Below, in pieces: positions 3,945 through 34,109 of a DNA stretch of 64,000 nt. The DNA lies in the NCBI GenBank assembly GCA_023819145.1, contig JAMWCW010000001.1, positions 66,400 through 130,399 on the forward strand. The letters run 5' to 3'. The DNA is from Candidatus Omnitrophota bacterium. Lineage in GTDB: Bacteria > Omnitrophota > Gorgyraeia > DTHP01. How positions within the stretch are numbered: position 1 is the stretch's first letter; each line of letters starts with the position of its first letter. The position numbers and the translations under genes were made by a program. The notes beneath the pieces are model-generated. The model was not told where the DNA came from. It saw only the letters and a list, made by a program, of their open reading frames with translations, and did not search any database.

Positions 3945-4187
3945 TTAATGTAGAAGAGAGGTACTTTATAAAACTTAAATTTCAATATCATAAATTAACT
4001 TTCTAGAATAAAAAGATGAGAGATTTTAATTATTTCTTTCTATTGGAAAGTGAAAAAATAGTTTCTCATTCTAAAGGGTATCAAGCCCTGATTAAAGCAT
4101 TGGAGCATGGTTTTGAAGGATTAGACAAGGAAATAGCCAAGAGGTTAATAAATTCCTATTTATATTTAAATGAAAGGAGGGAATGTA

Positions 4188-6611: not shown

Positions 6612-6644
6612 AAAATAAGATTTATTCTCGCAAAAGGAGGAATT

Positions 6645-8798: not shown

Positions 8799-8868
8799 GA
8801 TCTTATAATTCTTCTTAGTAATTGAAGTTGTCTAAAAATTATTTGCTACTAAAGGAGGGATTGTAGAG

Positions 8869-10407: not shown

Positions 10408-10461
10408 AGAGATAACTTATTTTATTTGGCATTTTTAAAACAAATAGGTTTCTGAGTATTT

Positions 10462-11253: not shown

Positions 11254-11325
11254 TGAGATTTGCTACTCTTAAAGAAATTATCTTGCGGCGAGAAATGATC
11301 ACAATTTTAAGGGGGAGGAAGTGAT

Positions 11326-13551: not shown

Positions 13552-13608
13552 ATTTTTTTGTAATATTTATATCTCCCTTTGGTTATAGATAATAGGGGGG
13601 CGAGAAAG

Positions 13609-14769
13609 ATGAAGAAATACTTAAGAATTAGAGGGATATTTATTTTAGTAGTATTTGTAGTATTTTTATTTACGCTTTTGATTCCTGTAAAACATTCCTT
13701 GGCTTATCCCAGGAGTTATCCTTATTTAGTTTCTAATTCATTACCAGCTTTTTCCGCGCGAGGGTTTAATGAAGCGCTCTTAGCGCGAGTTTTGCGCGAG
13801 ATTATCATTATCTATAAATTCTTGGCTCAAATCGAAAGGGTTCTTAATGAAAGAGGAGAAAATGATTTTCCATCTTTAGGTAGGGTCATCGGAGACAGAC
13901 CTCAGGAGAGAGAAAATTCCCAAAATACTCCCCCCAAAAGAAGTAATTTAAGGGAAGAACCTGCGGGTAACCGTCATCTAGACCCAGAAAATCCTTCGGC
14001 AAAACTACCAGAAGGGTCATCTTCGTCACCTGCTGGTTCTCTAGGAAAGATAAAGATTGCGATTATTGATATTGACTCTAAGCACGCCGCAGAAGTAAAG
14101 GCGGTAATGGAAGAGACAATTCGGCGTAAGAATCCCGGGGCAAAAGTAGAAATTCGTACCATTATTCTTCCTGGCAAATGGCAAAGGGATGGTTCTAAAG
14201 CGGTGGCTACCAGTGATATTTTAGACGCTTTTGCAGAAGCCAAAGCTTGGGGCGCAAAGGTAATCAATATGAGTATTGGTGCACAAGGAGGTGTAGACGG
14301 TATAGTGCTTAGTGCCTTACGCGACCTTTCTGAAAGTGGCATTCTGGTAGTAGCGGCATCAGGTAATGAAGGTAGTTATGATGCTTGGGGGCAAGCTGGC
14401 CGATATGTCTTATCAGTGGGGGTAAGAGGTGCACCTTATTCCAATACCGCTGATTTATATGTCGATTGGGGAGAGCTTCCACCTGGATTAGAAGGCACAT
14501 CTTTTGCTGCTCCGATTATTGCTGCGGAAGCGGCTTTAGCCTGGTTAGAAAACCCTTCCCTTAACTTGGCAAGTTTGCCTTCTCAATTAGGTTCACGGGA
14601 CACAGTTTATGCCCGGAGTAATCCTCCGCAAAGAAGTTCGCAGGGGTTTCACACTTCGGCAATAGAGTTTGTAAGGCCACCTGTTGTTTTTTATACGCCG
14701 GTGGAAGAAATGCCTTTTTACGAACAGAGTTTTTATTCGCCTGTTGGCTGTTTTCCGTCTTTTTGGTAA
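13609..14769 (+). CDS. subtilisin-like serine peptidase (S8 family), signal-anchored, no canonical HGTH motif seen
   Basis: AIIDIDS (Asp box), VINMSIGA, VAASGNEGS (oxyanion Asn), GTSFAAPIIAA (catalytic Ser box); start at ATG 13609 after RBS agggggg; N-term LRIRGIFILVVFVVFLFTLLIP; no RR motif after the hydrophobic segment. Confidence 0.55.
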   Translation: MKKYLRIRGIFILVVFVVFLFTLLIPVKHSLAYPRSYPYLVSNSLPAFSARGFNEALLARVLREIIIIYKFLAQIERVLNERGENDFPSLGRVIGDRPQERENSQNTPPKRSNLREEPAGNRHLDPENPSAKLPEGSSSSPAGSLGKIKIAIIDIDSKHAAEVKAVMEETIRRKNPGAKVEIRTIILPGKWQRDGSKAVATSDILDAFAEAKAWGAKVINMSIGAQGGVDGIVLSALRDLSESGILVVAASGNEGSYDAWGQAGRYVLSVGVRGAPYSNTADLYVDWGELPPGLEGTSFAAPIIAAEAALAWLENPSLNLASLPSQLGSRDTVYARSNPPQRSSQGFHTSAIEFVRPPVVFYTPVEEMPFYEQSFYSPVGCFPSFW

Positions 14770-14876
14770 TTTTTGTTTGTTTTCTTCTAAATAAAGGGGA
14801 CACTTACTACCGACTCTTCATTGGTTGTAAGAAAGTAAAAGATATTAAACTTGAATTCCGAGGAGGTATTATATAA

Positions 14877-16064: not shown

Positions 16065-16083
16065 AAAAAGGGGGAGATAAATA

Positions 16084-18471: not shown

Positions 18472-18483
18472 CCGGGAAAAACC

Positions 18484-18582
18484 GACCCCACCTCGTAGGT
18501 GTCCTTTTCACTGTATTGTAAGTTGTTTTTATATGGATACTTATGTGGGACGATTTTGGCCACCTACGAGGTGGGCACGGTT
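18484..18582. repeat. REP/BIME-like element: two inverted hairpin units (CCACCTCGTAGGTG / CACCTACGAGGTGGG) about 55 nt apart
   Basis: ccccacctcgtaggtgtcc 18486-18504 and ggccacctacgaggtgggcacggtt 18558-18582 are mutual reverse complements; the same units recur at 29475-29573 and 30283-30380 flanking a RAYT gene. Confidence 0.6.
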
Positions 18583-18948
18583 AGTTTTGGTTTGGGTGTG
18601 GGTTGAGGAAAGTAGATTTTGGGTTGAGGAGTTAGATTAAGGAAAAATAAAAAACAGAATAGAATGTTTTGAGGTGTAAAGAAAGTTTACCCCCACAATG
18701 ATAGAAGATGTCAGTGTAAGTAGATATTTATCAGTAACTTATGGATAGATGCTCTTAGAATGTAATTTTAATTTACTTTCTTATTTGCCTTATGAAAAAA
18801 GGAGGAAGATAAATTTTCTTGTTTTATAGTCGGAAAAATCTGTCTTTGGTGATTATCTAATATTCTGGCATAAATTTTGCTTACTCTAGTAACAGAAAAA
18901 ATGTCAGAATTAAAAATTGAAATAAGAAAATTTTTACCATCTCTGCCA

Positions 18949-18977
18949 TTGACGATAAGAGAAAGATGTGATATAAT
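18949..18977 (+). promoter_or_regulatory. strong sigma70-like promoter TTGACG -17- TGaTATAAT (extended -10) for the giant YD-repeat gene
   Basis: TTGACG 18949-18954, extended -10 TGATATAAT 18969-18977; 25 nt upstream of ATG 19002. Confidence 0.5.
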
Positions 18978-19001
18978 TTATATAGAGAATAATAATAAAT
19001 A

Positions 19002-22000
19002 ATGAATAAAATAATAAAAATGATAAATATGGAAAAGAAGAGAAAATATATTCTTATCTTTTTGGGACTATTTTTGCTTATTAGTGCCTATGTAGAGGCA
19101 AAGGTGCGTACTCAAGTAATTCGCAATAGCCCCGTCCCGGAAAGAAATGTGGGAATTATTCCTGAGGCGCGTTCGGTAGAAGACTGGGCACGGGTGAGAA
19201 CTCAGGTTATAAAAGAAACAGAAAGGAGAAACCGTCAAATAGAGACCAGCCAGAATCTTCCCGATAAAATGGAAGATAGCCGGAGAGAGACAGAAGAGGA
19301 ACGCCTCAAATCCGCTTACAAAATAGAAAAAGATGCTCGGGAGATGAAACAAAAAATAGAGCAGGCTTCTCCCAATGAGGTGGTAGGAGAAAATCCCGAT
19401 GGGACAAAATGGTATCAATACTCAGGAAGATTTGACATCTTCAAGAACTGGATAAAAAACAAACTCAAAGAACTTGGCCTCTTGGATAAATGGAAGGGTG
19501 AAAGTTTTGAGGAATTAGTTCAAAAATATGGTAAAACCAATTTTGACCTCACCTTCAACAAAAAATCTTGGTCTTATTTTGGTAAGCGCTCCTCGACTCT
19601 GCAAACCACAGAATTTCAATTTAGTTTAACCAATCCCGAAGATAATTTTGAAAAATATATTCAGACGCGCTCGCGTCAATTAATCTGGGATAGCGCCAAT
19701 AATCGCGAGGCAGAAATTGTGCAACATACTATAACCGATGAGATAGAATGGGCAGGTAAGTTCTATGGCACGCCGGGAAAAACCGAACAAGGAAGGCAGA
19801 TGCTTTCTTCTCGCCAGAGAACTTGGGATGAGACCAGGGGAACTTATTCTGAGGTAAACCAGAGAAATGTCTATGAAGGGAATTTCCATATGCCCATTAA
19901 GACCATCCGCAAGGTCTTTGAATCGGGCTACGATACTAAAGGCAATTACTATGAACGCCGATACGAGATGACCCGTGAGAATATTGAATGGGCGTGGGTT
20001 GTTTCAAGTGACCCAATTTCTGGCGGAAGTTATGAAACAAAGAGCTTTGACCAGACGATGATTGATTATTCCACGCCTGATAAAAAGACAATTTCCCACC
20101 ATGAGTTTACTTATACTGATGATGGAGTTCCGGAAAGTCAATTGATTGTTAGCCGAGAAGTTGGTTTAGGGCTAAATCATATTTCAGTAAGTTTAGAAAG
20201 ATATCTTGACTACTACAAAGATGGTTCTTTGCGCCAAGGACTGAGTCTTGATCTCACTGGTGATTTTCCTGACGTATATACCGCCGTAAAAGAAGGAAGA
20301 ACTTTACAGAATTTAATCAATAATAAAGAAACAAAGTCGCAAATCGAAGCACAGTTGGGACGCAGTTTAAACTTGAACAATCCTCAAGATTTAAAAATCT
20401 ATACCGCTTATCTGAGGGAAGGATTGGGGGAAACAGCAAGAAAAATCAGTTTGAGTTTTGCCGAGAAGAAACACAATGACAAAGCATTCCTTGCCTGGGA
20501 AAAAGAGACAGTTGCCATTGAAGGAAAAGATGAAAATGGGAGCCTGATTAGTTCTAGCAGTGAAATAGAAAAAACTTATACCCAGTTCTTACCCTTTGGT
20601 CAACCCACAGAGATTGAGCAACTGATAAGAAGCGAAGCCACACCAAATGTAGAAACAAAATTAAAGATTTCTTTAAAATACAACAAGTATTGTCAGGTAA
20701 CTGAACAGAGAACCGAAACGCGAGAAACAAGCCTTGATGGCAAACTTAATAAACACACGATAAGCATAAAAGATAAAATTGTTTACAATGGTTTAGGACA
20801 GGAAATTTCCTATCGTGAGCGAGAAGAAGAATATGATATAGATGGAAAGCGCATTGGCAATCGTGAAACTTTAGTAAAAAATATTACCTATAATGAAGAT
20901 GGCTTGCAGACCGGTTACGAGATGCAGAGCATAACCAGAGGAATTGATACTCATGATGGAAGTATTTTTGAGATAATTACTGAAACAAAAGTGCGCGATA
21001 TCCGATATAATGAATTGGATATGCGTATATCCTGGAAGGAGATAAGTATAGATTTAAGCAGAAGCCCGGGATTAATTAGTGAGAGAATGTATCAGGTAAA
21101 GGCAATAGATGAATTTGGAAGAATTACGGAGATAGATATAAAAGAACACACTTATGGCACTGCTTCCGATGGAACCTCTCTAAATACTGAACGCACCATT
21201 AACCGCAAGATAAAATACAACTCTTTAGGTCAGGAAGAAGAGGCAATTGAGGAGGTAATTGAGAAGGCAAAGACCACTATCTCAACCATTAAATATGCCT
21301 ATGACCAGTATGGGAGAATTTCGCGCGAAGAAAGAAAAGTGCATGTAACGGGGAAAGATGGAGATAGCGAATTGGACTATACTTATACTCTATTGCGCTA
21401 TGGATTTGAGTACAATGATGCAGGACTTCTACAGAGATATAAGGCTAAAATCCGGAATGAATCTACAGCCGATATAGAAATAACTCAGGAGGTAGAGATT
21501 GGCTATGACAGTCTGGGAAGAGTAGATTATCAGAAGACTCAAGTCTGGGAAGATACGCGAAGCGGAGATAAGGCCTTACACAAATACACACTTACCGTAA
21601 GGGAAAACATTACCTATAATGAATTAGGATTAGAGACAGCTTATACTGAAACAGAGGAGGAATTTGATGAAGATGGAAAACGCATTGGCAATCGTAAGGT
21701 TAAGGTAAGTAACATTACTTATAATGAAGATGGTTTGCAGACTGGTTATGACATGGCGGTAATAGTAGAAGGGACTGATACCCATGACGGAAGTAGTTTT
21801 GAAACCTTTACCGAGATTAAAGTGCGCGATATTCGTTACAACAATTTAGGCATCCGCATTAGTTGGAGAGAAACCACCATAGATACAAGTAGGAGTCCAG
21901 GATTAACTACCGAAAGAAAATACGCGGTTACAGAGATAGATAGGTTTGGTAGACCTATAGAGCTTATAATCAATGAGCATGCTTATGGCTCTGCTTCTGA

Positions 22001-23138
22001 CGGGACAAGTTTAGATACCTTCCGCAAGATTACACGCCAGATAACCTACAATTCTTTAGGTCAGGAAGAGGAAATTACTGAAACCGTAGAAGAAGGGGCA
22101 AAGAAAACCACTTCCAAGATTAAGTACGAATACGATGAATGTGGCAGGATTAAATATGAAGAAAGAAATATTCATGTAGAGGGCGAAGAAGAGGGGGTTG
22201 AGTTGGATTATATTTCTACAATAAGGCGTTATGGATTTAAATACAATGATGCAGGGCTTGTACAGGGCTATACGGCAGAAATCTGGAACGAGTCCAGTCC
22301 CGACTTAGAAATAAAGCAGGAGGTAGAATTTGGCTATGACAGTCTGGGAAGAATAGACTATCAACGAAGCGAAACCTGGGAAAAGGGAATAAGTAAAAAG
22401 CGCGATAAACATGGTGAACCTACAGGCGAGGAAGAAGAGGTTGAACGGCATACAATTTCTGAGAAATATGATATCCAATATAATGAATTGGGCTTGGAAA
22501 CTTATTATAAAACCGATAGAAAAGAATACGAGGATGGAGAGTTAATCCGCGATGTTACCGAGACCACTTCGGGAATAAGGTATGATAGTAAGGGAAGAAT
22601 GACTGAATACACCACCCATAGAACTGGTCAAGAGAGATTCCTTGAAGACAGTGGAGAATATGGGGAATTAAAGAGTGTAAATATTACTACCCATATTTAC
22701 AACATTACCTATGTTGATGGTCTGGATTTAAGAAAATCCTGGAGAGAAGAAATTTCTGGTTATATAGGGGGACAGGAATTTAAGGCAAGCACCCGTCAAT
22801 ATGAAATCTTAGAATTTGACCGCTTTGGAGAAGTGGTAGATATAAATATTGAAGGAGATGGAGTGGAGGAGGAAAATTCTGCTCCTCAGATTGATACGCG
22901 GGGAACAACTTCTGGCCCAGAAGTTAATCAGACCACCAGACCTTACTCTCCGACAGGTTCAATAAAGACAACAAGTGTTCGTCGGGGACCAGTAAGAGGT
23001 TTAGGAGTGCGCGGAAAAAGTAGAACTTATGCAAAAAGACCTTCCGGAATAAGTCTTTTGAGTAGTGAATCCAGTCAGCGTAAGAAATTAGAAGAGGAAG
23101 CAGAATATATTACGCCAGATAAAGAAGAAGAAAAATAG
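19002..23138 (+). CDS. giant secreted YD-repeat (Rhs/teneurin-type) protein, 1378 aa, with two near-identical ~290-aa tandem super-repeats
   Basis: Signal peptide YILIFLGLFLLISAYVEA; YD-type units ITYNEDGLQTGY, YAYDQYGRISREE, YEYDECGRIKYEE, IGYDSLGRVDYQ; super-repeat from about aa 598-888 repeated at 889-1170 (nt about 20790-22510); alternative start at ATG 19029 (MEKKRK) is possible. Confidence 0.6.
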   Translation: MNKIIKMINMEKKRKYILIFLGLFLLISAYVEAKVRTQVIRNSPVPERNVGIIPEARSVEDWARVRTQVIKETERRNRQIETSQNLPDKMEDSRRETEEERLKSAYKIEKDAREMKQKIEQASPNEVVGENPDGTKWYQYSGRFDIFKNWIKNKLKELGLLDKWKGESFEELVQKYGKTNFDLTFNKKSWSYFGKRSSTLQTTEFQFSLTNPEDNFEKYIQTRSRQLIWDSANNREAEIVQHTITDEIEWAGKFYGTPGKTEQGRQMLSSRQRTWDETRGTYSEVNQRNVYEGNFHMPIKTIRKVFESGYDTKGNYYERRYEMTRENIEWAWVVSSDPISGGSYETKSFDQTMIDYSTPDKKTISHHEFTYTDDGVPESQLIVSREVGLGLNHISVSLERYLDYYKDGSLRQGLSLDLTGDFPDVYTAVKEGRTLQNLINNKETKSQIEAQLGRSLNLNNPQDLKIYTAYLREGLGETARKISLSFAEKKHNDKAFLAWEKETVAIEGKDENGSLISSSSEIEKTYTQFLPFGQPTEIEQLIRSEATPNVETKLKISLKYNKYCQVTEQRTETRETSLDGKLNKHTISIKDKIVYNGLGQEISYREREEEYDIDGKRIGNRETLVKNITYNEDGLQTGYEMQSITRGIDTHDGSIFEIITETKVRDIRYNELDMRISWKEISIDLSRSPGLISERMYQVKAIDEFGRITEIDIKEHTYGTASDGTSLNTERTINRKIKYNSLGQEEEAIEEVIEKAKTTISTIKYAYDQYGRISREERKVHVTGKDGDSELDYTYTLLRYGFEYNDAGLLQRYKAKIRNESTADIEITQEVEIGYDSLGRVDYQKTQVWEDTRSGDKALHKYTLTVRENITYNELGLETAYTETEEEFDEDGKRIGNRKVKVSNITYNEDGLQTGYDMAVIVEGTDTHDGSSFETFTEIKVRDIRYNNLGIRISWRETTIDTSRSPGLTTERKYAVTEIDRFGRPIELIINEHAYGSASDGTSLDTFRKITRQITYNSLGQEEEITETVEEGAKKTTSKIKYEYDECGRIKYEERNIHVEGEEEGVELDYISTIRRYGFKYNDAGLVQGYTAEIWNESSPDLEIKQEVEFGYDSLGRIDYQRSETWEKGISKKRDKHGEPTGEEEEVERHTISEKYDIQYNELGLETYYKTDRKEYEDGELIRDVTETTSGIRYDSKGRMTEYTTHRTGQERFLEDSGEYGELKSVNITTHIYNITYVDGLDLRKSWREEISGYIGGQEFKASTRQYEILEFDRFGEVVDINIEGDGVEEENSAPQIDTRGTTSGPEVNQTTRPYSPTGSIKTTSVRRGPVRGLGVRGKSRTYAKRPSGISLLSSESSQRKKLEEEAEYITPDKEEEK

Positions 23139-23395
23139 AAAAAAAATTACGGAGGATAACAAAAATCTTTCATTTTAAGTAATTGTAATTAAATAGTTTA
23201 AAAATTAATTTTATAAGCATGTAACTTAAGTTTACAATTATTAAACATTTTAGGGAGGAGAAAAAAGAGAGATAAAAAATGTAAATTTAATTATATTAAT
23301 TACTTATAAATGACGATGATTTTAGAGGAAAATTGGCATTAAACTTGCTTATATAAAGATGAAAAATTAAAATTTTGAAAAAAGGAGGGTAAAAA

Positions 23396-26300
23396 ATGAA
23401 AAAGACAAGATTTTTACTAAACCGGGCCGGGGGAATTTTAATACTTTTCTTAATTTTGGCTTTTACAAAGCCGGGAGAGGGATTATTTTTTACTGGTGAT
23501 GACCCTACTCAATACCATATGAGTACTGGATGCGGGATGTATGGTAATGGTTGTAATGCTTTTGGGGATCAAGAACGGCAAACTCCAGGCTTACTGAGGC
23601 AAATGAGTTCGTCACCGGCGTCTATTCAATTTAAGGACGGAATTCCAGTGACAGGGGATTCAGTGAGGTGGTCTCTTTTCGATCTGGATAATGATGGTAA
23701 TGTTGATTGTTATATAGATGAAAGTGGAAATAGATATTTAAAAACTATAACCTCAGATGGCATAATAACAGGTTATATTTTAGCAAAAAATCTTGAAAAT
23801 GGAGATTTAGATGTTCAAGTATATGGATATACTCAAACTTCAGGTTATTTTCCTATAATTCCTATAGAACCACTTGATCACACAGAACAGAATACTCAGG
23901 TAGTTGAAACACAATACCGTTTAGTGGCACATTTTAAAGTAGACCAAGCCGCTGGGCTTAATTCTTTAATAAAAGCTATTTTAGATGATACTCGCCTGCA
24001 ATCATTCCTTCAAAAATTTGATCCCAATATGAATAGTATGCTTAATGTGGGTGGCCAACAACTGAAGTTAGTTGAAAGTTTTACATATAACGATACAGAC
24101 TCTGAATGGAATAAAAATGACCAGGAGGAAAAATATTACTCCTCTATAAATGGATATTTAAAAAGGGAGGTAATTTCTGGAAAGGAATATTATTATGTCT
24201 ATAATTCCGACTATACCTTAGCTGCGCGCTATACAAAAGATACTAGTGGTGATATCACAAGCTTGACATTTATTACTCCTTCTGGAGGAGCTTTTGAGCG
24301 AGGTAAGTTAATTAGTGGGACTGAATATGAATTATCCGGGGCTTCCTTGGGGTATCTGAAGGGCTTATCGGAACTCTCGCTAAATATAAATAATATAGGT
24401 TCTTTAATGGAAAAATCTGCAATAATAGCGGGAACCTCATGGCTTAAGTTAGGCGAAAACCACTATTTTCAGCTTAAAAAAGGAACAATTGAGCAGGTAG
24501 TAACTGTAACTGTAGCAGACGATGGAAAATCTTCTTCTTTAACTTTGCAAAGGCTCAAATTGGAAGATGATAAATTGGTAGTAGTAAATGGTCAGTCAAT
24601 AACTGTTTCCAACGCGCTTTTAACTGGCAAGTTGCCAAGCGGATACTTAGATTCCTCAATTACTTCCCCTAAAGTCTTAGACCTTATTTTAAAAGGAGCC
24701 TCCATAGATTACACTCATCAGAGAATTTATTTTGATTATACAGGAAAGACTTATGCTTATGATGTTACTGGAGAAGGCTTACAGTATTATTATGTTTATT
24801 ATATGGGCGGAGGAAATACATTACCATTATTACAAATTTATGGTCCTGATACTAATATAACAACTGAAAACCCTGATTTAACTTTAACTGTGCCACAAGA
24901 ATTAAAAATCACTAATTTTACTTTTAATGTTAAAGGAACTAGCGCTACATTATCTTTCCAAGCAGATGGTAAAGAATACACATATAACCTTCCTACTAGT
25001 AAAAATGGTTCTTTTACCTTGAGTATTGATCCCCAAGCCACTGGTGCAGGGGTAATTGCACCTACTATTAAAATACTACCACCCGCATTAAGCGAGGAGC
25101 AAAAAAGATGGATTGCTAGTATTTTGGGTCTAGAAGACGATCCGGGTGGTCGAACAGCCGTACAACAATTGGATAATTTATTGGGAGATTCCCAAAATTA
25201 TTTTGTAACTGGTAATTATTTTGGGATTCAATCAGGAGAGAGTATTTTTATATTTAATACTTCCTCACTAAGTGCAGGTAGTAGATATCTTAAATTTGAT
25301 GGTAAAAATCTAATAATTAATGAGGGTACTACAACTATAACTATAGGAGATTTCGCTAAAGTTTTAAAGAGTCTAGGATTCTCTGCTTGGCTGGATGCTT
25401 TTAAATCTATGGAGGAAGATTCTCTGAGGACCCTTTTTGGACTAAATCCGAGCAATTCAGCCAATTTCACACTTGCCTTTGAGAAGATTATTACTGAGGC
25501 GCAGAAAGAGTTTTATAATTTCTCGTTTGAGAAAGACACAAGTGGTAGTAATTATTCGCCTAGGGGATATGCTAAGGCTATGTTGGATAATTCCCGATCT
25601 GTTGTTGTTGTTGAGTTTTATATTAGTGATGGGGATAGTTTCACCAAAGTTTTAGGATTTGATAGACCTACATTACTGCAAATATTAGATAGATCAGAAA
25701 CCTTTGAAGGCTTGTATGAAAAAGCTAAGGGATTTGTCAGGAATATTAGTTATGTAAAAAGGTTAGATGGAACTTATGTTTGGGTATGTAGTATAGGTAA
25801 TAAGTTTGTTCAATTTTATTCTATTGGAGGAGGAAGTGAATGGTGGGCATTGGCTGTTGATGCTACTGGTGATGTTACTGTATATGATAGCGGATGGGAG
25901 ATAAAATATACAATTGCTAAAATAGAGTTAGAATCGTCACCATCACCAAGCGTTGATTTAGTAAAAAGCCTAATTTTTGATGAGCAAACATTGCATCTTC
26001 TTCGGTTAAGTATAGAGCAAAGAGGAGACGGTGGTGTAACAGGTGTAACAATCCAAAGAAACAAAATAGAAGTGTGGGAACTGAAAAAAGCTTCGGCGAA
26101 TAGTAATGCGTTAAAGAGGATAGAAAAATTTACTTTGCTTGGAGAGGAATCTGTGGTAGCAGGAAGGGCGACCCCACTTGATCCAGAGCCAGTTATTGAA
26201 TTCGGCAGTAGAAAAATAAAGGAAATCCAATTTACCAATTTTGCGGGGATGGTAACCTTCGCTCGAGGAATTAGTTTTAAGACTCAGGGTGATAAAAGTT

Positions 26301-29300
26301 ATCTGATTTTAGGAGGAAAAATTTATGAGCTTTCTTTAGCAGAAGATGGATCAATCTTTACAATTAGCCAAACTCCTATTATTACGATTGAGCAACAAAC
26401 TTGGGAAGCAATAAGAACACTTATTGCTTACGAGCGGACAAATACTGGAAGTGTAACTGGCCCGAGTGCAATTGGCTGGGCTGATATTAGTATAGTAATA
26501 GAAAAAGAGGACAAAGTGTACTTTGAGGTGCCAGTGAAATCAATTGATGAGGGAAGATATGTATTGAGATTTGATAGTAAGGGACAATTAATTAAGAGAG
26601 ATGGTGCAGTATTGAGTTTTACTCCCACAGATTCAGATGAATCCCAAAAAGCAGAAAGCTTTAAAACATTTTTGCAAAATAATGTAGGCAATCTTCCTTT
26701 ATCTGCAGCAGGCAAAGCCTATGAGAGATTTTGTTCACAGTTGGCAATTGCTGGTGTGGCTAAAGTAGATTGGGAGATATTTCTTCGTAGCTGGAATGAA
26801 GGGGCAAAAACTCTTGAAGGCTTTAGTGACCCCGGATGGGGTGGGGGACTTAGTAGGAGCGAACTTATCGCGGCATTGGAGCTTAGTGATGAGCAGAAAC
26901 AACAGCAGTTGCGTAGAATTGAGGCTACAGATATAAATGGGTTTAATAAATATCTTTATATTGATGACAAGGGAAATATAGTTTATGTAGAAGAACTACC
27001 TGATCCCTCGAAAGGAAAATATAAAGGATATTTATTAAGGTATCAGTGGAATGATTCTGCTAATCCTCCGGAAGCGAATATTTCTGGAGTATTGGTAGGA
27101 GCTATGCAGCGTTCAACTTCACAAAATGTTTTATCACAAAATGTTTTATATGGAATAGTAGCAGAGGTTGATAATGGTGGGGGTTATGTAAAATTGAATG
27201 ATAAAGGATTTGAATTAAATTTAAATATTATATTTAAAGGTAATAACAAGGGGTATGAGAATCTTTTTGATTTTGAAACATACAAAATCGAAATCAAGGT
27301 TAGTAGAGTGGATAATACATTGACGCAGGTAGAAACAACGAATTGGGCTAATTCTAATGCGCAAAGATGGTATACGAGCTCTACCATTACTACAGTAGTA
27401 GGGCTACTGGAGGATGGGAAATTTGAAAAAAAGCGAGAAGAAAGGGTATTAAAAAATAATGAGGGGGAGCAAGAAACAATCACTTTTCCTGAATTTGATG
27501 GAAAAGGCAACCCCACTAAAAAACAGGTGCATTCTTTGAGGAAAGTCGATATTGAGGGTTGGGAATGGAGAGAGGATAATTATACAGAGACAGGAACTCT
27601 TAACAGTAATCAACAATGGGTGAGGAAAGGTTATGAACCTAATACTCAAAGGACAATTAAGCTAAGTAGAGGAAATGGGGATTATCTACAGCAGGAGTAC
27701 TCTATAGATGGAAATGGAAAAGCAATCAGATGTGTTATTGAGGAAAAAAGAGGTTCGGTAACTGCCAAAGTAGAAGAAGAAGTAGTAGGTGAAGGGGATT
27801 TATTATTCTTAGGAGAGAATACACAACTTACCTTGAATATTAATGGAGATAGGATAGATCCCAAAACAGGACAAACGGTAAGTGTAAGTGGCAATAATGT
27901 AGTAAGGTCTGTTTATGTATTTAAGGACGAAGAGGTGGCAGCACTTAAACAGCAGGGCTTAACCATAAGGGCTGGTATTCCTTATATCCTTGATAAATAT
28001 GAAGATGGTTCGTTTAGAATATATACCGCATTTGTAGAACAAACATATCTTGATGCACAAGGAAAACCTAAAGCGTATTATGTGGCTGGAGAATATGTAG
28101 GAACCCTTGGTTCAAAAAAAGCCAGTGACGGTGCCAGTGGCGGAGGCGGTGGAGGAGGTGGAGGAGGTGGAGGAGGTGGACCGGCAGGAAGTGACAAAAT
28201 TCCTCCTTCACAAATAGCTAATCAGGATACAGGAGAGATTGTTGGTGGTATGGAAGGGCAATTAGATGGTTTTGTGAAAAGAAGCTATCCTGAGAGAGTA
28301 GAGGAATTAGCTCATACTTATCGGGCAATGGGTCCGGGAATGAAGGAGAGAGCACTTTCTATAAACGATAGAGATAGTGCCAGAATATATCTATTGGGGA
28401 GATTTCTTTCCAGAGATAAAATTAAACAAGTTCTTTCGGTTCTTAAAAATAAGAATCTTTCTATTGAGGAAAAACGCGCTTTACTTAAGAAACTGGGGCT
28501 TTCGGATAAATTGCTTGACTTACTCCTTAATGGTGATGAAGAAGCATTAATTAAAGAAGCTCAAAAAATGCTCCTTAAGGATTTCGGGCTTTCTGATGAG
28601 GAGATTGAAGAATTCTTCAAGAGCAGTGATAAAAAAGGATATTTGCAGAAGAAAGGACTTTCTGATGAACGCATTGAGGCGGTAATGGAGATAACAGATT
28701 TAGAGAAGGCTCAAGAGGCAATCCTTAATCAGGAGGCAGTTTTGGAAGAGTTGCTCAGTGAGGAAGAGAAAGCACTTATGGAGGAGCTTTTTGCTTTGTT
28801 AGAGGAATATACCGGATTTATTAGTGATGAAGAGTATGCGGAATTAAGGGAGATTTTGGTAGATTTGGGGCTTTCTGAGGAGACCATAGATGATTTAATA
28901 GGTAAAAATGCGGATGAGTTTATGAATAGTCAGTTGCGGAATTGGGCAATGATGGATGAGAAAAATATTCTTGAATTGGCAAGGATGCTTTTCTTTGATG
29001 AAGACTTAAAGTTAGATAAATGGACTGCGGAGTTTATTGTAAAAGGTGATGAGTTTATGGTAAATGAGCTCTTAAGTAAAATTAGACAAGCAGTAAAAGA
29101 GTATCTTGAAGAGTATTGGGGTAAAGAGGTCAGTGAAGAAGAAGTTAAAGGTTTGGATGAGGCGACTAGAGAGAAAATTGCCGATGCTTTACTGCAAGCG
29201 ATAGGTAGAGGAGGACTTACGCTGGAAAATGCTTCTAAAAAAGTAAAGGAAATTCTTGCAGAGATTATCCCTTTGAAGGAAGCGAAAGAGGAGAAGAGCC

Positions 29301-29443
29301 CTATTCAGCCAGCACCTTCTCCGGAACCGTTACAGCCACAATCTCTTGCTGCGGTAAGTATTCAGGGTAACTGGAGGAGCAAAAATAATGATGATGATAT
29401 TCCGCGGTTGTTAAGAGAAAAAAATGAACTCAGAAGCAGATAG
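23396..29443 (+). CDS. giant secreted protein, 2015 aa, with Gly15 run and C-terminal acidic helical GLSDE-repeat region
   Basis: RBS aaaaggaggg; signal peptide ILILFLILAFTKPGEG; GGN-codon run 28138-28185 encoding G15; repeated GLSDEEIE / GLSDERIE / GLSEETID motifs about 28460-28890; no recognisable catalytic motif. Confidence 0.55.
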   Translation: MKKTRFLLNRAGGILILFLILAFTKPGEGLFFTGDDPTQYHMSTGCGMYGNGCNAFGDQERQTPGLLRQMSSSPASIQFKDGIPVTGDSVRWSLFDLDNDGNVDCYIDESGNRYLKTITSDGIITGYILAKNLENGDLDVQVYGYTQTSGYFPIIPIEPLDHTEQNTQVVETQYRLVAHFKVDQAAGLNSLIKAILDDTRLQSFLQKFDPNMNSMLNVGGQQLKLVESFTYNDTDSEWNKNDQEEKYYSSINGYLKREVISGKEYYYVYNSDYTLAARYTKDTSGDITSLTFITPSGGAFERGKLISGTEYELSGASLGYLKGLSELSLNINNIGSLMEKSAIIAGTSWLKLGENHYFQLKKGTIEQVVTVTVADDGKSSSLTLQRLKLEDDKLVVVNGQSITVSNALLTGKLPSGYLDSSITSPKVLDLILKGASIDYTHQRIYFDYTGKTYAYDVTGEGLQYYYVYYMGGGNTLPLLQIYGPDTNITTENPDLTLTVPQELKITNFTFNVKGTSATLSFQADGKEYTYNLPTSKNGSFTLSIDPQATGAGVIAPTIKILPPALSEEQKRWIASILGLEDDPGGRTAVQQLDNLLGDSQNYFVTGNYFGIQSGESIFIFNTSSLSAGSRYLKFDGKNLIINEGTTTITIGDFAKVLKSLGFSAWLDAFKSMEEDSLRTLFGLNPSNSANFTLAFEKIITEAQKEFYNFSFEKDTSGSNYSPRGYAKAMLDNSRSVVVVEFYISDGDSFTKVLGFDRPTLLQILDRSETFEGLYEKAKGFVRNISYVKRLDGTYVWVCSIGNKFVQFYSIGGGSEWWALAVDATGDVTVYDSGWEIKYTIAKIELESSPSPSVDLVKSLIFDEQTLHLLRLSIEQRGDGGVTGVTIQRNKIEVWELKKASANSNALKRIEKFTLLGEESVVAGRATPLDPEPVIEFGSRKIKEIQFTNFAGMVTFARGISFKTQGDKSYLILGGKIYELSLAEDGSIFTISQTPIITIEQQTWEAIRTLIAYERTNTGSVTGPSAIGWADISIVIEKEDKVYFEVPVKSIDEGRYVLRFDSKGQLIKRDGAVLSFTPTDSDESQKAESFKTFLQNNVGNLPLSAAGKAYERFCSQLAIAGVAKVDWEIFLRSWNEGAKTLEGFSDPGWGGGLSRSELIAALELSDEQKQQQLRRIEATDINGFNKYLYIDDKGNIVYVEELPDPSKGKYKGYLLRYQWNDSANPPEANISGVLVGAMQRSTSQNVLSQNVLYGIVAEVDNGGGYVKLNDKGFELNLNIIFKGNNKGYENLFDFETYKIEIKVSRVDNTLTQVETTNWANSNAQRWYTSSTITTVVGLLEDGKFEKKREERVLKNNEGEQETITFPEFDGKGNPTKKQVHSLRKVDIEGWEWREDNYTETGTLNSNQQWVRKGYEPNTQRTIKLSRGNGDYLQQEYSIDGNGKAIRCVIEEKRGSVTAKVEEEVVGEGDLLFLGENTQLTLNINGDRIDPKTGQTVSVSGNNVVRSVYVFKDEEVAALKQQGLTIRAGIPYILDKYEDGSFRIYTAFVEQTYLDAQGKPKAYYVAGEYVGTLGSKKASDGASGGGGGGGGGGGGGGPAGSDKIPPSQIANQDTGEIVGGMEGQLDGFVKRSYPERVEELAHTYRAMGPGMKERALSINDRDSARIYLLGRFLSRDKIKQVLSVLKNKNLSIEEKRALLKKLGLSDKLLDLLLNGDEEALIKEAQKMLLKDFGLSDEEIEEFFKSSDKKGYLQKKGLSDERIEAVMEITDLEKAQEAILNQEAVLEELLSEEEKALMEELFALLEEYTGFISDEEYAELREILVDLGLSEETIDDLIGKNADEFMNSQLRNWAMMDEKNILELARMLFFDEDLKLDKWTAEFIVKGDEFMVNELLSKIRQAVKEYLEEYWGKEVSEEEVKGLDEATREKIADALLQAIGRGGLTLENASKKVKEILAEIIPLKEAKEEKSPIQPAPSPEPLQPQSLAAVSIQGNWRSKNNDDDIPRLLREKNELRSR

Positions 29444-29472: not shown

Positions 29473-30380
29473 CTGCCCACCGCGTAGGTGGGCATTTTTT
29501 CTTGACATAAGCTTATAAATTTGCTATATTTATTATAGAGTTTAAGGGACACCTACGCGGTGGGATAGGTTTTATTAATTATAGGAGAGTATAAAGAAGT
29601 TAACGAGAGTTAAGGAGAAAAAATGAGAAAGAATTTTCTGGCAGTAGGAGAAATTTATCACGTGTTGAATAAAAGTATTGCGGGTTTTCAGATTTTTAAC
29701 GATGAAGATGAATATCAGCGAATGGCTGGGCTTTTTGCCTATTATCAAAAAGAGAATCCTCCAGTTAAGTTCTCTAAGTATTTAAATTCCAATAAAAAAG
29801 GTTCTGAGGGGGAGAATACAGGAAATAAATTAGTGGAAATTATCGCCTATTGTCTTATGCCTACCCATCTTCATCTCTTATTGAGACAGATGAAAGAAGA
29901 AGGGATTTCTCTTTTTATGGGAAATGTTTTAAATAGCTACACCCGCTATTTTAATACCCGACATAAGCGCAAAGGACCTCTCTGGGAGGGTAGATTTAAA
30001 AGAATTCAAGTAAAAACCGAGGAAAATTTATTGCACCTTACCCGCTATATCCATCTTAATCCGGTTACAGCGTATCTGGTGAACAAGCCCGAGGATTGGC
30101 TTTTTTCTTCTTATCGAGAGTATTTAGGTCAGGTTGATGGTAAGGAGAAAATTTGCAATTTTGAAGATTCTTTAGAGATAGGCCCTGACTATAAAGAATT
30201 TGTGGAAGATAGAATTTCTTACCAGAGAGAACTTGCTCAGATTAAAGATTTAATAGTTGAAAACCTCTCCACCTAAACCTTAGACCACCTCGTAGGTGTC
30301 CTAAATCGATGATTATAAGTGTAAGAAATTATGTAGCTTATGATGAAGGAAATAGACCACCTACGAGGTGGGTACGGTTT
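29473..30380 (+). mobile_element. REPtron: RAYT gene flanked on both sides by REP/BIME hairpin pairs; the upstream pair contains a terminator-like hairpin and an embedded promoter
   Basis: gcccaccgcgtaggtgggc+TTTTTT (29475-29500) then ggacacctacgcggtgggataggtttt (29547-29573); TTGACA 29502-29507 -17- TATATT 29525-29530 between the units; downstream pair gaccacctcgtaggtgtcc 30283-30301 and gaccacctacgaggtgggtacggttt 30355-30380. Confidence 0.65.
29623..30276 (+). CDS. REP-associated tyrosine transposase (RAYT, IS200/IS605 Y1 HuH family)
   Basis: HuH motif AYCLMPTHLHLLL, LWEGRFKRIQV, catalytic-Tyr region LTRYIHLNPVTAYLV, WLFSSYREY; 217 aa; RBS aaggag. Confidence 0.8.
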   Translation: MRKNFLAVGEIYHVLNKSIAGFQIFNDEDEYQRMAGLFAYYQKENPPVKFSKYLNSNKKGSEGENTGNKLVEIIAYCLMPTHLHLLLRQMKEEGISLFMGNVLNSYTRYFNTRHKRKGPLWEGRFKRIQVKTEENLLHLTRYIHLNPVTAYLVNKPEDWLFSSYREYLGQVDGKEKICNFEDSLEIGPDYKEFVEDRISYQRELAQIKDLIVENLST

Positions 30381-30439
30381 ATAACGGTAGGAAAAGGAAG
30401 GAAGAAGAGGAAAGGTAAGTGAGAGGAGGAAAGAGGGAG

Positions 30440-30838
30440 ATGAAAAAAAGAATTCTGTTTTTGGGGATGGTTGGAGTATTATTGAGTTTTGTTTCTTGTG
30501 GAAAGGCAAAAGAGGAAGTTTACGAATCAGAGACAAAGGCAAGCGAAGAGGTGAAAATAGCTATGGTAGAGGAGGGAGAAATGGCCCAGAAACCTGAACT
30601 AAAATATGTGGAAGGAGAGCTTTTAGTAAAGTTTAAACCCGAAGTTTCTGCAGAAGAGATAATTACGATCCTCAAAGACGAATATCAATGCGAGATTATT
30701 GATATTATAAAAGGATTAGATGTTTACAGGATAAAAATGCCCAAAGGAAAAACTGTCCCCGAGATGGTGGAGTTATTGAGTAAAGATGAACGGGTGAAAT
30801 ACGCCGAACCTAACTATATCTATCGCTTACAGATGTAG
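30440..30838 (+). CDS. small lipoprotein with subtilase-propeptide (inhibitor I9)-like domain
   Basis: Signal MKKRILFLGMVGVLLSFVSC (lipobox-like); LLVKFKPEVSAEEI...VYRIKMPKG...VKYAEPNY resembles peptidase inhibitor I9 / subtilisin pro-domain ending in YAEPNY; ORF track starts at GTG 30419. Confidence 0.4.
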   Translation: MKKRILFLGMVGVLLSFVSCGKAKEEVYESETKASEEVKIAMVEEGEMAQKPELKYVEGELLVKFKPEVSAEEIITILKDEYQCEIIDIIKGLDVYRIKMPKGKTVPEMVELLSKDERVKYAEPNYIYRLQM

Positions 30839-31612: not shown

Positions 31613-31922
31613 ATACTGTATCAAACCATATCAAGAAACTTTCTCGCTTATTTATTCCCAAATCTCACGAGAAAAGATAAACCGTATCAGAGCCGTGATA
31701 CGGTATTTAATTTCCTAAATTACCGAGCCACTCTCCATAAAGCAAGGGTATCAACTGTATCATAATTCTTTAAAAACCCTTGCCAAAATCCCTGCCGAAA
31801 AAGATAAGAAAAAAATATAACCAAAATGATTTTTTTTCTTGACAAAAGTTCTTAATTATGATAAGGTTAAAACCCTGATACTGTTTGATATAGTTAAACC
31901 CCCTTTAAAACAGGAGGGAGAA

Positions 31923-34109
31923 ATGAAGAAAGGTTTATTAAGGAAAGGAACCTTCATCGGGTTTCTTTTTTTATTGTTCTGGACAAGTAAGGTGAAGGGA
32001 GAAAAACAGGAAAGGAGTTTGGATAGTATAGAGCTAAAAGAACGGAATGAAGGGATACGGTTGATTATCTTGACCGACCAACCAGTAGAATATTCAGTGT
32101 ATGAAACCGACCTTCCTCCACGGCTGATTGTTGACCTCATCGGTACAGATATTTATGCCCATTCTAGAGTACCTTCTCATCTTGTGGTAGATAAATCACA
32201 ACTTAGGGCGGTGAACTTGCGTTGGTATGGCAAGCCTCCAGAAAAAGAAGGAGAACGGGCAAAAGTAGATTTGATAGAGTTTTTGCTAAAGAAAAAAGTT
32301 AAATATAAAGTGCTTAAACAAAATAACCGGATTATCGTAGATTTGGATTTACCGGGTTTTGTGCCTACGAAAGAGATAACGGAGGAGAAAGAAGTAAAAA
32401 CCCCTTTAGTAAATTTAGAACCCAGATTTCTGGAAGAAACCGAGGGTTGGGAAAAATGGATGGACATTGCCCTTGCCAATTACAAACCACTCCATATCGC
32501 TTATGAACAGGTGGAACTGGCACAGATAAAGGTGCGCGAAGCAAGAAGAATGCTTTTCCCGATTACGGTGATTAAGGCTGGACGCACCCGCGGTGATACT
32601 TCCGTAAGGGATGTCAGTTTTACGGAACAATCCTTTGGGATTCAGATGGAACAACCCATTAGCCAGGGAGGAGAACTGCGTTATAAATTGGAACAGGCTC
32701 TGGTTAATATGGATATTGCTCAGCGCGAGTATGAGCGGATAAAGGCAGATTATATGCTGGAAGTGAAACGCGCCTATTACAATTTACTGATTTATATTAT
32801 GAATGCAAAAATTTATGAAGATATTTTTAAGGAAGCAAATGATTTTTTGGAAATGGCCAAAAACCACTATGAAAAGAAATTAATTACCCAGTTGGAATTC
32901 CTCAATGTCCAGTCCCTCTATAGCCAGATTAAATACCAGCTGGTGGCTGCCCAGAAAGACCGCACCTTGGCAGAGCTTACTTTCAAACAAGTGCTAAACT
33001 TAGACCCCACGGTTACGCTGGAGCTTGAAGGCTGGTTAAAATTTGAAAAGCTTAATTTACACTTAGAACGGTGCAAGGAAATTGCTTTTAAGAAGAGGCC
33101 AGAGTTATCCATTAATGAGTTGATTGTCCGCTTTAATGAGTTAGGACAGAAAGCAGCAGATTCCAAAGAGAAACTTAAAGTTAGTCTAAGCGGATATTTG
33201 GGCACTACGGGAAGTGCCTATGATACTGAAGAGTTAAAGATGAAATCTGACTGGTTTCTAGGGCTTAAACTGAGCAAGGCATTTGGAGGGAATACCTTAA
33301 ATACCTCCCTGGTCAAGGAAGAGACGGTTCCTCGGCTTTCTCTTTCCCAGGAAAAAACCGGGAGTATAAGCGCCTCTGCAGAGTTTAATCTCTTAGATGG
33401 ACTTAGTCGTTTATCAGAGAAAAAAGGAGCCAGCGTAGAATATCTGCGCGCGGTGAATGAATTGTGGGAGGTGAAAAAGACTGTGGAATCAGAAGTGGTC
33501 AGTTCTTTTAACGAGTATCAGAAAGCCCTTTATCAATTAGATAATGTCTGGGAACGTATCCAGTTTCAGAAGAAGCGCGTGGATGTGACGGAGGCGCGCT
33601 GGAAACTGAATGAGGCAGGTATTTCTGATGTGCTGGAAGCAAAGATTGCCCTTGCTTCGGAAAAAGCATATTACAATAATCTCTTAGCCAATTACTATGG
33701 GGCGTTGAGCACGCTTACAAAAGCGTGCGGTCTGTATAAATATGCGGAGTTGATTCAAGGAGCTTCTCCGGAAATATTCTGGCATCGGGTAGCGGGAACA
33801 GAGGAACTTGATTATACCCAACTGCATAAGGAAGTTTTTCTTCCTAAGGGCGAGAAAATAGTCAAAATTGAGGACCTTCCCGGAGGGAAAATTATTGCGG
33901 TAAATAACGAAAGTGGTTTTGCCATCATTAATCTCGGTCAGGACCAGGGTGTAAGAGAAGGAGCAGAGTTGTGGGTGTATCGCCGGAAGGAAAAGGTGGG
34001 AGTATTAAAAGTCAGTAAGACCAAAAATGCTACTTCTTCTTGTAGGATTGCCCGTGCGGAAGCAGGAGAGAAAATTAGATTAGGGGATGAAGTAAAGGTA
34101 ATACCTTAG
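31923..34109 (+). CDS. outer-membrane efflux protein (TolC/OEP family) with AMIN-like N-terminal domain and extra C-terminal beta-domain
   Basis: Start moved to ATG 31923 after RBS aggaggga; signal FIGFLFLLFWTS; IRLIILTDQPVEYSVYETDLPPRLIVDLIG resembles AMIN; long coiled-coil OEP repeats (LEQALVNMDIAQREYERIKADY...LITQLEFLNVQSLYSQIKYQL); C-terminal GFAIINLGQDQGVREGAELWVYRRKEKVGVLKV; possible promoter TTGACA at 31839-31844. Confidence 0.6.
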   Translation: MKKGLLRKGTFIGFLFLLFWTSKVKGEKQERSLDSIELKERNEGIRLIILTDQPVEYSVYETDLPPRLIVDLIGTDIYAHSRVPSHLVVDKSQLRAVNLRWYGKPPEKEGERAKVDLIEFLLKKKVKYKVLKQNNRIIVDLDLPGFVPTKEITEEKEVKTPLVNLEPRFLEETEGWEKWMDIALANYKPLHIAYEQVELAQIKVREARRMLFPITVIKAGRTRGDTSVRDVSFTEQSFGIQMEQPISQGGELRYKLEQALVNMDIAQREYERIKADYMLEVKRAYYNLLIYIMNAKIYEDIFKEANDFLEMAKNHYEKKLITQLEFLNVQSLYSQIKYQLVAAQKDRTLAELTFKQVLNLDPTVTLELEGWLKFEKLNLHLERCKEIAFKKRPELSINELIVRFNELGQKAADSKEKLKVSLSGYLGTTGSAYDTEELKMKSDWFLGLKLSKAFGGNTLNTSLVKEETVPRLSLSQEKTGSISASAEFNLLDGLSRLSEKKGASVEYLRAVNELWEVKKTVESEVVSSFNEYQKALYQLDNVWERIQFQKKRVDVTEARWKLNEAGISDVLEAKIALASEKAYYNNLLANYYGALSTLTKACGLYKYAELIQGASPEIFWHRVAGTEELDYTQLHKEVFLPKGEKIVKIEDLPGGKIIAVNNESGFAIINLGQDQGVREGAELWVYRRKEKVGVLKVSKTKNATSSCRIARAEAGEKIRLGDEVKVIP

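Follow-up and report, generated by a model that had tools for sequence, protein, structure and literature searches.

Bacterial surface proteins that keep constant ends around a replaceable middle include flagellin, with its D0/D1 as against its D2/D3 domains, Msp2/P44 of Anaplasma, and S-layer proteins with a constant anchoring domain. A second arrangement of interest is that of two-partner secretion (TPS) and contact-dependent inhibition (CDI) with subtilase maturation, represented by FhaC, FhaB and SphB1 and by CdiB and CdiA. The Omnitrophota are uncultured, ultra-small and probably host-dependent bacteria whose very large proteins mostly carry no recognisable domains. Studying a 64,000-nucleotide (nt) stretch of a Candidatus Omnitrophota genome (GenBank assembly GCA_023819145.1, contig JAMWCW010000001.1, positions 66,400 to 130,399 of the forward strand; hereafter the window, in whose numbering coordinates are given unless another locus is named), we found that the gene at 23396-29443, which encodes a giant protein of 2015 amino acids (aa), is a mosaic: in this gene and its relatives the protein bodies have been swapped between conserved ends. 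This mosaicism is the main feature of the locus and had been missed in a preliminary description of the same DNA.

The giant was compared with the sister-species locus L001, on a 390-kb contig found by a metagenome scan, with further loci (L002 to L010) obtained by contig look-ups via the protein of the upstream partner gene, and with the tail-bearing proteins P0008-P0012, of which P0009 lies in L011 and P0012 in L012 and L013. The parts of the giant gene are as follows.

23396..29443, + strand: giant open reading frame (ORF) of 2015 codons and a stop, without interruption
23396..23650, + strand: conserved N-terminal module, with predicted signal peptide (aa 1-29), Cys-x6-GC loop and RQTP motif, to ~aa 85
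23482..28138, + strand: exchangeable body cassette (aa ~30-1581), without DNA homology to the sister species
26696..28138, + strand: pre-linker part of the body (aa 1101-1581), common to P0009, the L002 giant and, weakly, P0011
28139..28180, + strand: Gly14 hinge, (GGN)14 (aa 1582-1595), with three perfect GGAGGAGGT units; 3' border of the swapped cassette
28181..29443, + strand: acidic C-terminal tail (aa 1596-2015), predicted to be all-helical; the family-defining module
28460..28915, + strand: four two-helix units of ~25-30 aa, [FY]Lxx(K)G-L-S-[DE]-E-x-I, resembling the C-terminal half of Pex14_N
29021..29038, + strand: WTAEFI motif (aa 1876), the most conserved short motif of the tail, found as [WF][TL]A[EK][FYL]I in 8/8 tails
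29399..29440, + strand: extreme C-terminal basic motif IPRLLREKNELRSR (alignment A2)
29474..29494, + strand: terminator-like GC hairpin and T run, 31 nt past the giant stop, doubling as an arm of a REPIN doublet (29477/29549)

The stretch 23396-29443 is a real gene. The single 2015-aa ORF reported in the preliminary description is intact, its frame running uninterrupted over more than 6 kb of a genome of 38% GC and across the GGN tract, and a strong ribosome-binding site (AAAGGAGGG) lies 8 nt 5' of its start. The Gly run splits the protein into 1581 aa before it and 420 aa after it. From the sole hydrophobic segment of the protein, aa 4-22, and the KKTR n-region that precedes it, we infer that the N-terminus is a signal peptide; aa 1-84 are similar to the giant of L001 and to P0010.

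Comparison of the window with L001 by blastn showed ~73% homology over 18859-23481, a span that takes in promoter, partner gene and spacer and ends 86 nt into the giant ORF. From 23482 to 28138 there was no homology; it resumed at 28139, the first Gly codon, from where it ran to 29145. At the protein level the two giants match at aa 1-84 and aa ~1530-1970 only, and their bodies, of 1495 and 770 aa, are unrelated. A second, independent case is provided by P0010 and P0011, whose tails are 90% identical over 428 aa, whose signal peptides agree at 21/29 residues and whose bodies are unrelated; here too the break falls at the Gly-rich linkers. Furthermore, the body of the L001 giant is nearest to that of P0010 (E 1e-150) and its tail is nearest to that of the window. 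This pattern of abrupt breaks in homology and of discordance between bodies and tails indicates that the bodies were replaced by recombination and did not merely diverge fast. The boundaries of the cassette are unusually clean, at the poly-Gly tract.

The full-length relatives (n = 7) share one plan, namely signal peptide, large body, Gly-rich linker and tail. The linker lies 370-640 aa from the C-terminus and reads G14 in the window, G16 in L001, GSGGGAGGGGGGNGGSGN in P0010 and GAGAGGEGYAGGGGQAGGSRPGPGGGGPSGDG in P0012, and is G/S/P-rich in L002, P0009 and P0011. The tract of the window had been reported as Gly15, encoded by (GGN)15-16 at 28138-28185; the run is real, but it is Gly14 at 28139-28180, and it was in this count and in a few bases of the coordinates that the earlier account, otherwise right, erred. 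A hinge separating body from tail had also been proposed and finds support, as the tract lies exactly at their boundary and a Gly-rich linker occupies the same place in 7/7 full-length relatives, which is what one would expect of a functional hinge. Both the hinge and the point at which the exchanged cassette ends on its 3' side are clearly marked by the Gly tract.

An acidic C-terminal region of ~400 aa with iterated GLSD-type helical units had been noted, and both features are borne out. The tail is 420 aa long, and its aa 1601-2015 hold 89 D+E vs 60 K+R, with 14.7% E and 14.2% L. GLS[D/E] occurs in it four times, at aa 1701, 1731, 1754 and 1825 (nt 28496-28880), and the consensus of the unit across relatives (alignment A2) is [FY]Lxx(K)G[LFIV][ST][DE]ExI. 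Copies number 4 in the window, ~9-10 in P0009, ~5 in P0012 and 2-3 in P0010 and L002; as every relative has the unit, in 2 to ~10 copies, chance does not account for it. Of the tails, 6/8 close with an I-x-x-LL-x-(R/K) peptide, which P0009 and P0012 lack. Between the window and L001 the tails are 62% identical by BLASTP and 72% over MAFFT-aligned codons, and the ratio of nonsynonymous to synonymous substitution rates (dN/dS) is 0.08, as against 0.59 for the first 85 residues of the giant, values that are rough because dS, at ~2, is saturated. The ratio of 0.08 indicates that the tail is a functional domain and not merely a low-complexity region. This conservation disposes of one half of the earlier proviso, that the repeats might be simple low-complexity sequence with no predicted structure, and structure prediction bears on the other half in part: the single-sequence AlphaFold2 (AF2) model of the tail is all helix, with a predicted local distance difference test score (pLDDT) of 49 overall and of 70-83 across the GLSDE repeat core, confidence being low outside that core. 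The tail contains no hydrophobic segment, a search of PDB with its profile gave nothing significant (PEX14 matched at E 1.4), and neither Pfam nor NCBIfam, even at E ≤5, matched it to a type IX secretion system C-terminal domain, PEP-CTERM, LPXTG, SLH or an autotransporter barrel.

The known family closest to the tail unit is Pex14_N (PF04695), as [FY]LxxKGL[ST][DE]EEI matches positions 23-45 of its profile. Summed over repeats, P0009 (46 bits) and P0012 (32.5 bits) pass the gathering score of 23.2 bits, whereas the window tail reaches 14.5 bits, below this cutoff, over profile positions 26-45 only. The match is confined to the final half of the three-helix domain and in no single stretch reaches significance; the context of the tail is bacterial and predicted to be extracytoplasmic. 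Membership of the window tail in Pex14_N was therefore rejected as sub-threshold, the relatives passing only by the summing of partial repeats, and the resemblance appears to be one of motif and not of family. The ligand motif of Pex5 is WxxxF/Y, and the conserved W-x-x-E-[FY] of the tail resembles it.

An exhaustive HMMER scan of 1.84 billion cluster representatives with the tail retrieved five proteins only, P0008-P0012, with the match C-terminal in 5/5. One of these is annotated as a protein of a Candidatus Omnitrophota metagenome-assembled genome (MAG), and P0008 is a fragment that carries only the tail and the [WF][TL]A[EK][FYL]I motif. We propose to define the family by a signal peptide, a variable body, a Gly-rich linker, GLS[DE]E-type units and [WF][TL]A[EK][FYL]I, all of which the window protein and the 7 full-length relatives have. 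Word-index searches of 5.8 billion proteins with the whole giant and with the body alone gave nothing among the best 8000 candidates, the sister protein itself being outside the index. Nothing was found in two scans of GTDB representative genomes (with the giant, and with the upstream PEP-utiliser gene for synteny) or in a scan of viral contigs, and exact look-ups of the giant, the partner and one neighbour in a contig index gave no match. Judged by the sources that carry names, the tail family appears to be tiny and restricted to Omnitrophota. The exact giant protein is absent from a collection of 15 billion proteins in which the upstream neighbour from the same MAG is present; the public record of the giant gene may have another start, a split or a pseudogene label.

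No catalytic or other domain was detected in the giant protein by Pfam, including segment-wise scans at E ≤5, or by NCBIfam, PHROGs and PADLOC, in agreement with the preliminary description, which had recognised no catalytic motif. As PADLOC and PHROGs gave no match, there is no link to defence or phage. A sequence search of PDB with the giant returned only the Gly linkers of single-chain variable fragments. For aa ~85-1100 the searches made gave no significant relative, and BLAST self-comparison of the body found no internal repeats. The pre-linker part, aa 1101-1581, matches P0009 (phmmer E 1e-17 and 4e-49; alignment A4), and its profile matched nothing in PDB. By hhalign it showed no relationship to the partner protein, indicating that the giant and partner genes are not paralogues. 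Early in the body, FDLDNDGNVDCYIDESGN at 23681-23731 (aa 96-112) resembles a calcium-binding loop of the DxDxDG type, the EF-hand_1 match being sub-threshold (E 0.12).

We favour, at a probability of roughly 0.45, the explanation that the giant is a Sec-exported envelope or surface protein made of a constant frame and an exchangeable insert, with the tail as a handle and the body exposed. The frame would consist of the signal peptide with the short Cys-loop, the Gly-rich hinge and the acidic helical tail with its units, WTAEFI and terminal LLxxR, and the insert would be the large body, replaced by recombination with end points in the signal-peptide-coding region and in the (GGN)n tract. The tail would dock the giant to the conserved machinery of its neighbourhood, candidates being the Rhs-like hairpin partner in the window clade and, more widely, the S8 protease, the prodomain-like protein and the OEP/MFP/RND proteins. 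Thanks to the hinge the variable body would be free to move; exposed and subject to diversifying pressure, it would most plausibly make contact with host or prey cells. A role in adhesion or cell-cell interaction is plausible. For the locus it is predicted that breakpoints lie at the signal peptide and the Gly linker, that the tail binds the product of a neighbouring gene, and that the S8 protease cleaves the linker.

Several results weigh against the constant frame with an exchangeable insert. No silent body or tail cassettes were found by tblastn in the window and all fetched loci, and the available sequence showed no recombinase. The tail model, itself of low confidence, matched nothing in Foldseek. 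There is no partner gene within contigs L011, L012 and L013, and as it is absent beside the distant P0009 and P0012, the partner cannot be a universal docking site. The model of the partner compares with Rhs shells at TM-scores of only 0.09-0.13 and a root-mean-square deviation of ~30 Å, which does not support a closed cocoon. Synteny with the RND genes could be a matter of conserved gene order and not of function, and the saturated dS makes the substitution ratios used here rough.

Four rival explanations were considered and ranked in the order FhaB-like prodomain, Rhs/Tc-like delivery, slippage locus and artefact. The first of them turns on the genes that surround the giant and its partner.

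13579..14769, + strand: subtilase (Peptidase_S8) gene, Pfam S8 E 4e-10, with N-terminal hydrophobic segment, GTSFAAP Ser motif and VINMSIG
18488..18574, no strand assigned: REPIN-like inverted REP (repetitive extragenic palindrome) pair at the 3' edge of a PPDK block absent from the sister locus
30419..30838, + strand: free-standing Fervidolysin_NPro-like (subtilase prodomain-like) protein, Pfam E 2.3e-16, with orthologues in L001, L011 and L012
30848..31612, + strand: 254-aa protein with no domain match, 61% identical to the gene at the same position in L001
31839..42295, + strand: OEP (TolC-like), HlyD-type adaptor and two AcrB-type RND pumps (Pfam), in the same order in L001, L011, L012 and L013

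In the window clade the order is S8, the PPDK pair with a REPIN (window only), partner, giant, the RAYT gene with REPINs, NPro-like gene, ~250-aa protein, OEP, adaptor and RND. Beside the distant P0009 (L011) and P0012 (L012, L013) the giant is followed by S8, NPro-like gene, ~235-aa protein, OEP, adaptor and RND. The S8 gene is directly 5' of the partner in L001 and L003-L009, whereas L011-L013 have it directly 3' of the giant. For window vs L001, dN/dS is 0.18 for the S8 protease and 0.07 for both the OEP and the HlyD-type adaptor, values of 0.07 to which those of the tail (0.08) and the partner (0.10) come close. The position of the 254-aa gene is taken in other loci by genes of ~235-240 aa with no domain match; the window protein gave no BLASTP match at E ≤1e-3 to its counterparts in L011 and L012, which are 40% identical to each other. 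The window OEP is ~35% identical to those of L011 and L012, and since the gene order has survived such divergence, a functional link is suggested. The OEP gene itself (31839-34109) is unusually long, with 756 aa (725-842 in relatives), a weak, sub-threshold AMIN match at its N-terminus and a weak FlgT_C match. Export of the giant by a type I secretion system via the neighbouring OEP and MFP was rejected, the pump genes being of RND type and the giant having a Sec signal.

Bordetella FhaB loses its conserved C-terminal prodomain via the subtilase SphB1. By analogy, the tail of the giant could be a periplasmic prodomain or intramolecular chaperone for export and folding of the body, which S8 would remove at or near the Gly linker to leave the body alone as the mature product. 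The S8 gene and the free prodomain-like gene are indeed the most constant neighbours of tail-bearing genes, and an unstructured Gly-rich linker would be an accessible site for cleavage. However, a TPS domain, a POTRA domain and an Omp85 partner were not detected, the Pfam matches to S8 are weak and partial, and an anchor would account just as well for the strong conservation of the tail. We consider this alternative unlikely, though it survives better than the other three.

Other features of the surroundings are recorded here. The split pair of genes like pyruvate-phosphate dikinase (PPDK; PPDK_N 14877-16064, PEP-utilizers 16084-18471) and its REPIN are absent from the sister locus, where S8 directly precedes the partner (L001 ~4990-5350, corresponding to window ~14600-18860). 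Three REPIN-like doublets (18488-18574, 29477-29563 and 30285-30371) consist of inverted CCACCTACGAGGTGG-type palindromes 72 nt apart; the palindromes gave 11 strand-matches at six sites vs 0.02 expected, and two of the doublets flank the gene for RAYT (REP-associated tyrosine transposase) at 29623-30276. Between giant and RAYT, the sister species alone has a gene rich in fibronectin-III and Ig domains (L001 14161-17136; L006-L009 ~18600-21630), the protein being 971, 980 or 988 aa long (the 991-aa ORF in L001 results from a different start rule), and these differences among sister assemblies suggest another repeat-length polymorphism. In the more distant L002, the interval 6152-7568, which separates the partner gene from the gene of its 2556-aa giant, has an insertion of small ORFs, a 23S-rRNA-IVP-like gene and a HicA/HicB toxin-antitoxin pair. 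Upstream of S8, 2271-13551 contains divergent glycolysis-type genes on the same strand, namely PGK, GAPDH, class II aldolase, PFK and an aminotransferase; by eye their Pfam scores look low for such enzymes. Four of the five have N-termini that look like signal peptides or transmembrane segments and N-terminal extensions of 120-480 aa without domain match, except for a lone HHH_3 at aa 402-445 of the aldolase ORF. Oddly for glycolytic homologues, they are apparently exported or membrane-anchored, and they may relate to the 'multi-enzyme' giant proteins of Omnitrophota. Pfam scans of window ORFs reached 43564, and neither an Rfam family nor a tRNA was detected in the window.

The second rival explanation concerns the partner gene, which has the following features.

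18949..18977, + strand: sigma-70-type promoter-like site, TTGACG-17-TATAAT with TG extension, matching the consensus at 11/12 positions, 25 nt 5' of the partner gene
19002..23138, + strand: partner gene, for a 1378-aa predicted secreted protein of beta-hairpins with YD-like motifs

The strong extended -10 promoter proposed for the two genes is a real promoter-like site, and its -35 hexamer and TGTGnTATA are kept in L001. The two-gene unit placed downstream of it is real as well, as partner and giant are adjacent in the sister species too and at two Omnitrophota loci that are more distant, but it is clade-specific, the distant tail-bearing genes having no partner. The partner is 100% identical to P0001, a Candidatus Omnitrophica MAG protein (GenBank NC818_00260). 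It has six homologues from MAGs and metagenomes, every one with a source name coming from an Omnitrophota MAG. Partner and L001 orthologue are 72% identical, with a dN/dS of 0.10. Within the partner, aa 546-820 and 821-1097 form a 277-aa tandem duplication at 57% identity, to which a third copy, now degenerate, is added (region aa 546-1284).

The AF2 model of partner residues 121-1295, made from a 7-sequence alignment, has a pLDDT of 85 and a predicted TM-score of 0.70 and is a meander of ~70 strands of 10-15 residues each, with short turns and small helical inserts. Its top 8 Foldseek matches in PDB are all Rhs, Tc or teneurin shells (E 4e-18 to 3e-10, probability 1.0), namely the type VI secretion system (T6SS) Rhs core 8qja, TcB-TcC 6suf and 4o9x, teneurin-2 9g42, and YenB-RHS2 5kis and 4igl. 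The likeness extends to 10-15-residue beta-hairpins, [YF][DN]xxG turns (16 such motifs) and a size of ~1200 aa. The partner differs from these shells in having a predicted Sec signal peptide and in lacking a DPxGL autoprotease motif (by regular expression) and a C-terminal toxin domain, its last 85 aa being a basic low-complexity tail. It had been labelled a 'YD protein', a label that fails at the level of sequence, with no match to YD/RHS models in Pfam (E ≤0.01) or NCBIfam (E ≤0.1) and no PDB chain at E ≤1 for the profile of the 7 homologues, and is retained only for the local fold likeness of a confident model. Judged from this model, the partner appears to be Rhs-like in local fold and is not demonstrably a member of the family.

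On the second rival explanation the partner would form a closed YD shell in or on which the tail of the giant, or other cargo, is accommodated, the two proteins together making up a toxin-like or attack complex of a predatory or episymbiotic cell. The only significant fold matches of the partner model are the shells of T6SS Rhs, TcB-TcC, YenB-RHS2 and teneurin; 16 YD-type motifs are present, and the C-terminus of the partner is basic where the tail of the giant is acidic. Moreover, Omnitrophota giant proteins have been connected with predation, and hollow beta structures of Rhs-like type have been predicted in them (bioRxiv 10.1101/2023.11.21.568195). Against such delivery stand the failure of RHS_repeat/YD models and PDB profiles to match the partner, its lack of a DPxGL motif and of a toxin domain, TM-scores ≤0.13 and its absence in distant family members, and neither TcA nor VgrG nor PAAR was found among the Pfam-scanned ORFs, which extend to 43564. 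We regard this alternative as quite improbable. A TcA-like (Tc toxin) identity of the giant was rejected, its tail having no hydrophobic channel helix and TcA domains being absent.

The third rival takes the (GGN)n tract for a site prone to slippage, by which the protein would be turned on and off or the length of the hinge would vary in populations, as the preliminary description had envisaged. The tract reads GGC GGA GGC GGT (GGA GGA GGT)x3 GGA between AGT (Ser) and CCG (Pro), so that it contains three perfect GGAGGAGGT units, and Tandem Repeats Finder reports a 9-nt unit x4.3; there are 14 Gly here vs 16 in the sister species. However, every repeat unit is a multiple of 3 nt and long mononucleotide runs are lacking, so slippage by a triplet or by 9 nt keeps the frame, and phase variation at the Gly tract is excluded. 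Length variation fares little better: the G16 tract of the sister species, in mixed codons, is invariant in five independent assemblies (L001, L006-L009), while a different repeat, an 84-nt (28-aa) tandem repeat near the N-terminus of the sister-species giant, is present there in 1 or 2 copies and yields proteins of 1310 or 1338 aa. That variable repeat, GPQATTTQADAVAPA.QGSNLQ.TLT.T, emerged from comparison of the giant genes at L001 10001-14017 and L006 14493-18425. Distant relatives use mixed G/S/P linkers and not homopolymers. Population-level length variation of the Gly tract is therefore unsupported by these assemblies, which are of the sister species, and a contingency locus is, in our estimate, very improbable.

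Finally, that the ORF is an assembly chimera joined at a low-complexity tract, or a non-functional remnant, is scarcely credible even though the exact protein is missing from the 15-billion collection that holds its upstream neighbour and the join of conserved and non-conserved DNA falls exactly at the repeat, because the order of body, Gly linker and tail is found in seven full-length proteins with different bodies from separate assemblies or samples, the pre-linker body is homologous to P0009 in one alignment that continues across the linker into the tail, no stop interrupts 6 kb of sequence at 38% GC, and the tail is under purifying selection.

The constant frame with an exchangeable insert can be developed further, into a scheme that we hold to be improbable. 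The signal-peptide region and (GGN)n would be recombination anchors for the exchange of ectodomains that recognise host or prey, the tail would be a new assembly domain whose Pex14_N-like units bind the W-x-x-E-F/Y of neighbouring tails or the interior of the partner shell, and the whole would be an S8-matured attachment or attack organelle of episymbiotic nanobacteria.

The locus offers a tractable, medium-sized example of a constant frame with an exchangeable body, and the tail profile is a concrete handle for finding such proteins in new complete genomes. The partner, an Rhs-type hairpin protein invisible to sequence models and recovered by structure prediction, bears on the prevalence of such shells in candidate phyla.

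Of the described giant proteins, those of Omnitrophota itself are at least 10,000 aa long and fall into Archaeovorin-type, Dockerin-type, multi-enzyme and tandem-repeat classes (bioRxiv 10.1101/2023.11.21.568195; 10.64898/2026.06.07.730766). The window protein shares with them the phylum, a secreted or membrane-anchored nature, the scarcity of recognisable domains, the frequent uniqueness of sequence and a suspected contact with host or prey; it is 5-70x shorter and lacks dockerin, TSP3 and C39 domains and multiple transmembrane helices. A conserved tail, a Gly hinge or body swapping of the present kind was not found described in the passages of these two preprints that were read or searched by term. 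A type I secreted RTX adhesin was rejected on the grounds that there is no RTX/HemolysinCabind match, that an N-terminal signal-like segment is present and that the pumps are AcrB-type RND and not ABC.

The locus resembles TPS and CDI systems in that a beta-rich partner gene immediately precedes the gene of a very large and polymorphic exoprotein, in that modules are exchanged between segments that are conserved, and in having a subtilase nearby and a C-terminal region that is conserved. It differs in that the variable part of the giant is the middle and not a C-terminal toxin, that there is no immunity gene, and that the partner looks Rhs-like and not Omp85-like. Assignment to TPS/CDI was rejected, as no Haemagg_act, POTRA or ShlB barrel was found in either protein by Pfam, NCBIfam or segment-wise scans at E ≤5.

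A further parallel is with surface proteins of conserved ends. As in these, conserved terminal modules under purifying selection flank a middle that is unrelated between close relatives, and the discordance of tail and body in the giant family indicates recombination. There is no relationship in sequence or fold, donor pseudogene cassettes were not seen for the giant, its boundary is a Gly homopolymer or Gly-rich linker, and its 400-aa acidic helical repeat tail has no known counterpart. The giant belongs to a very small family without a name and seems to be a variation on a general theme, in which a constant anchor carries a surface module that varies. What marks it out is the clean poly-Gly border of the cassette, together with an Rhs-like partner that sequence models do not see.

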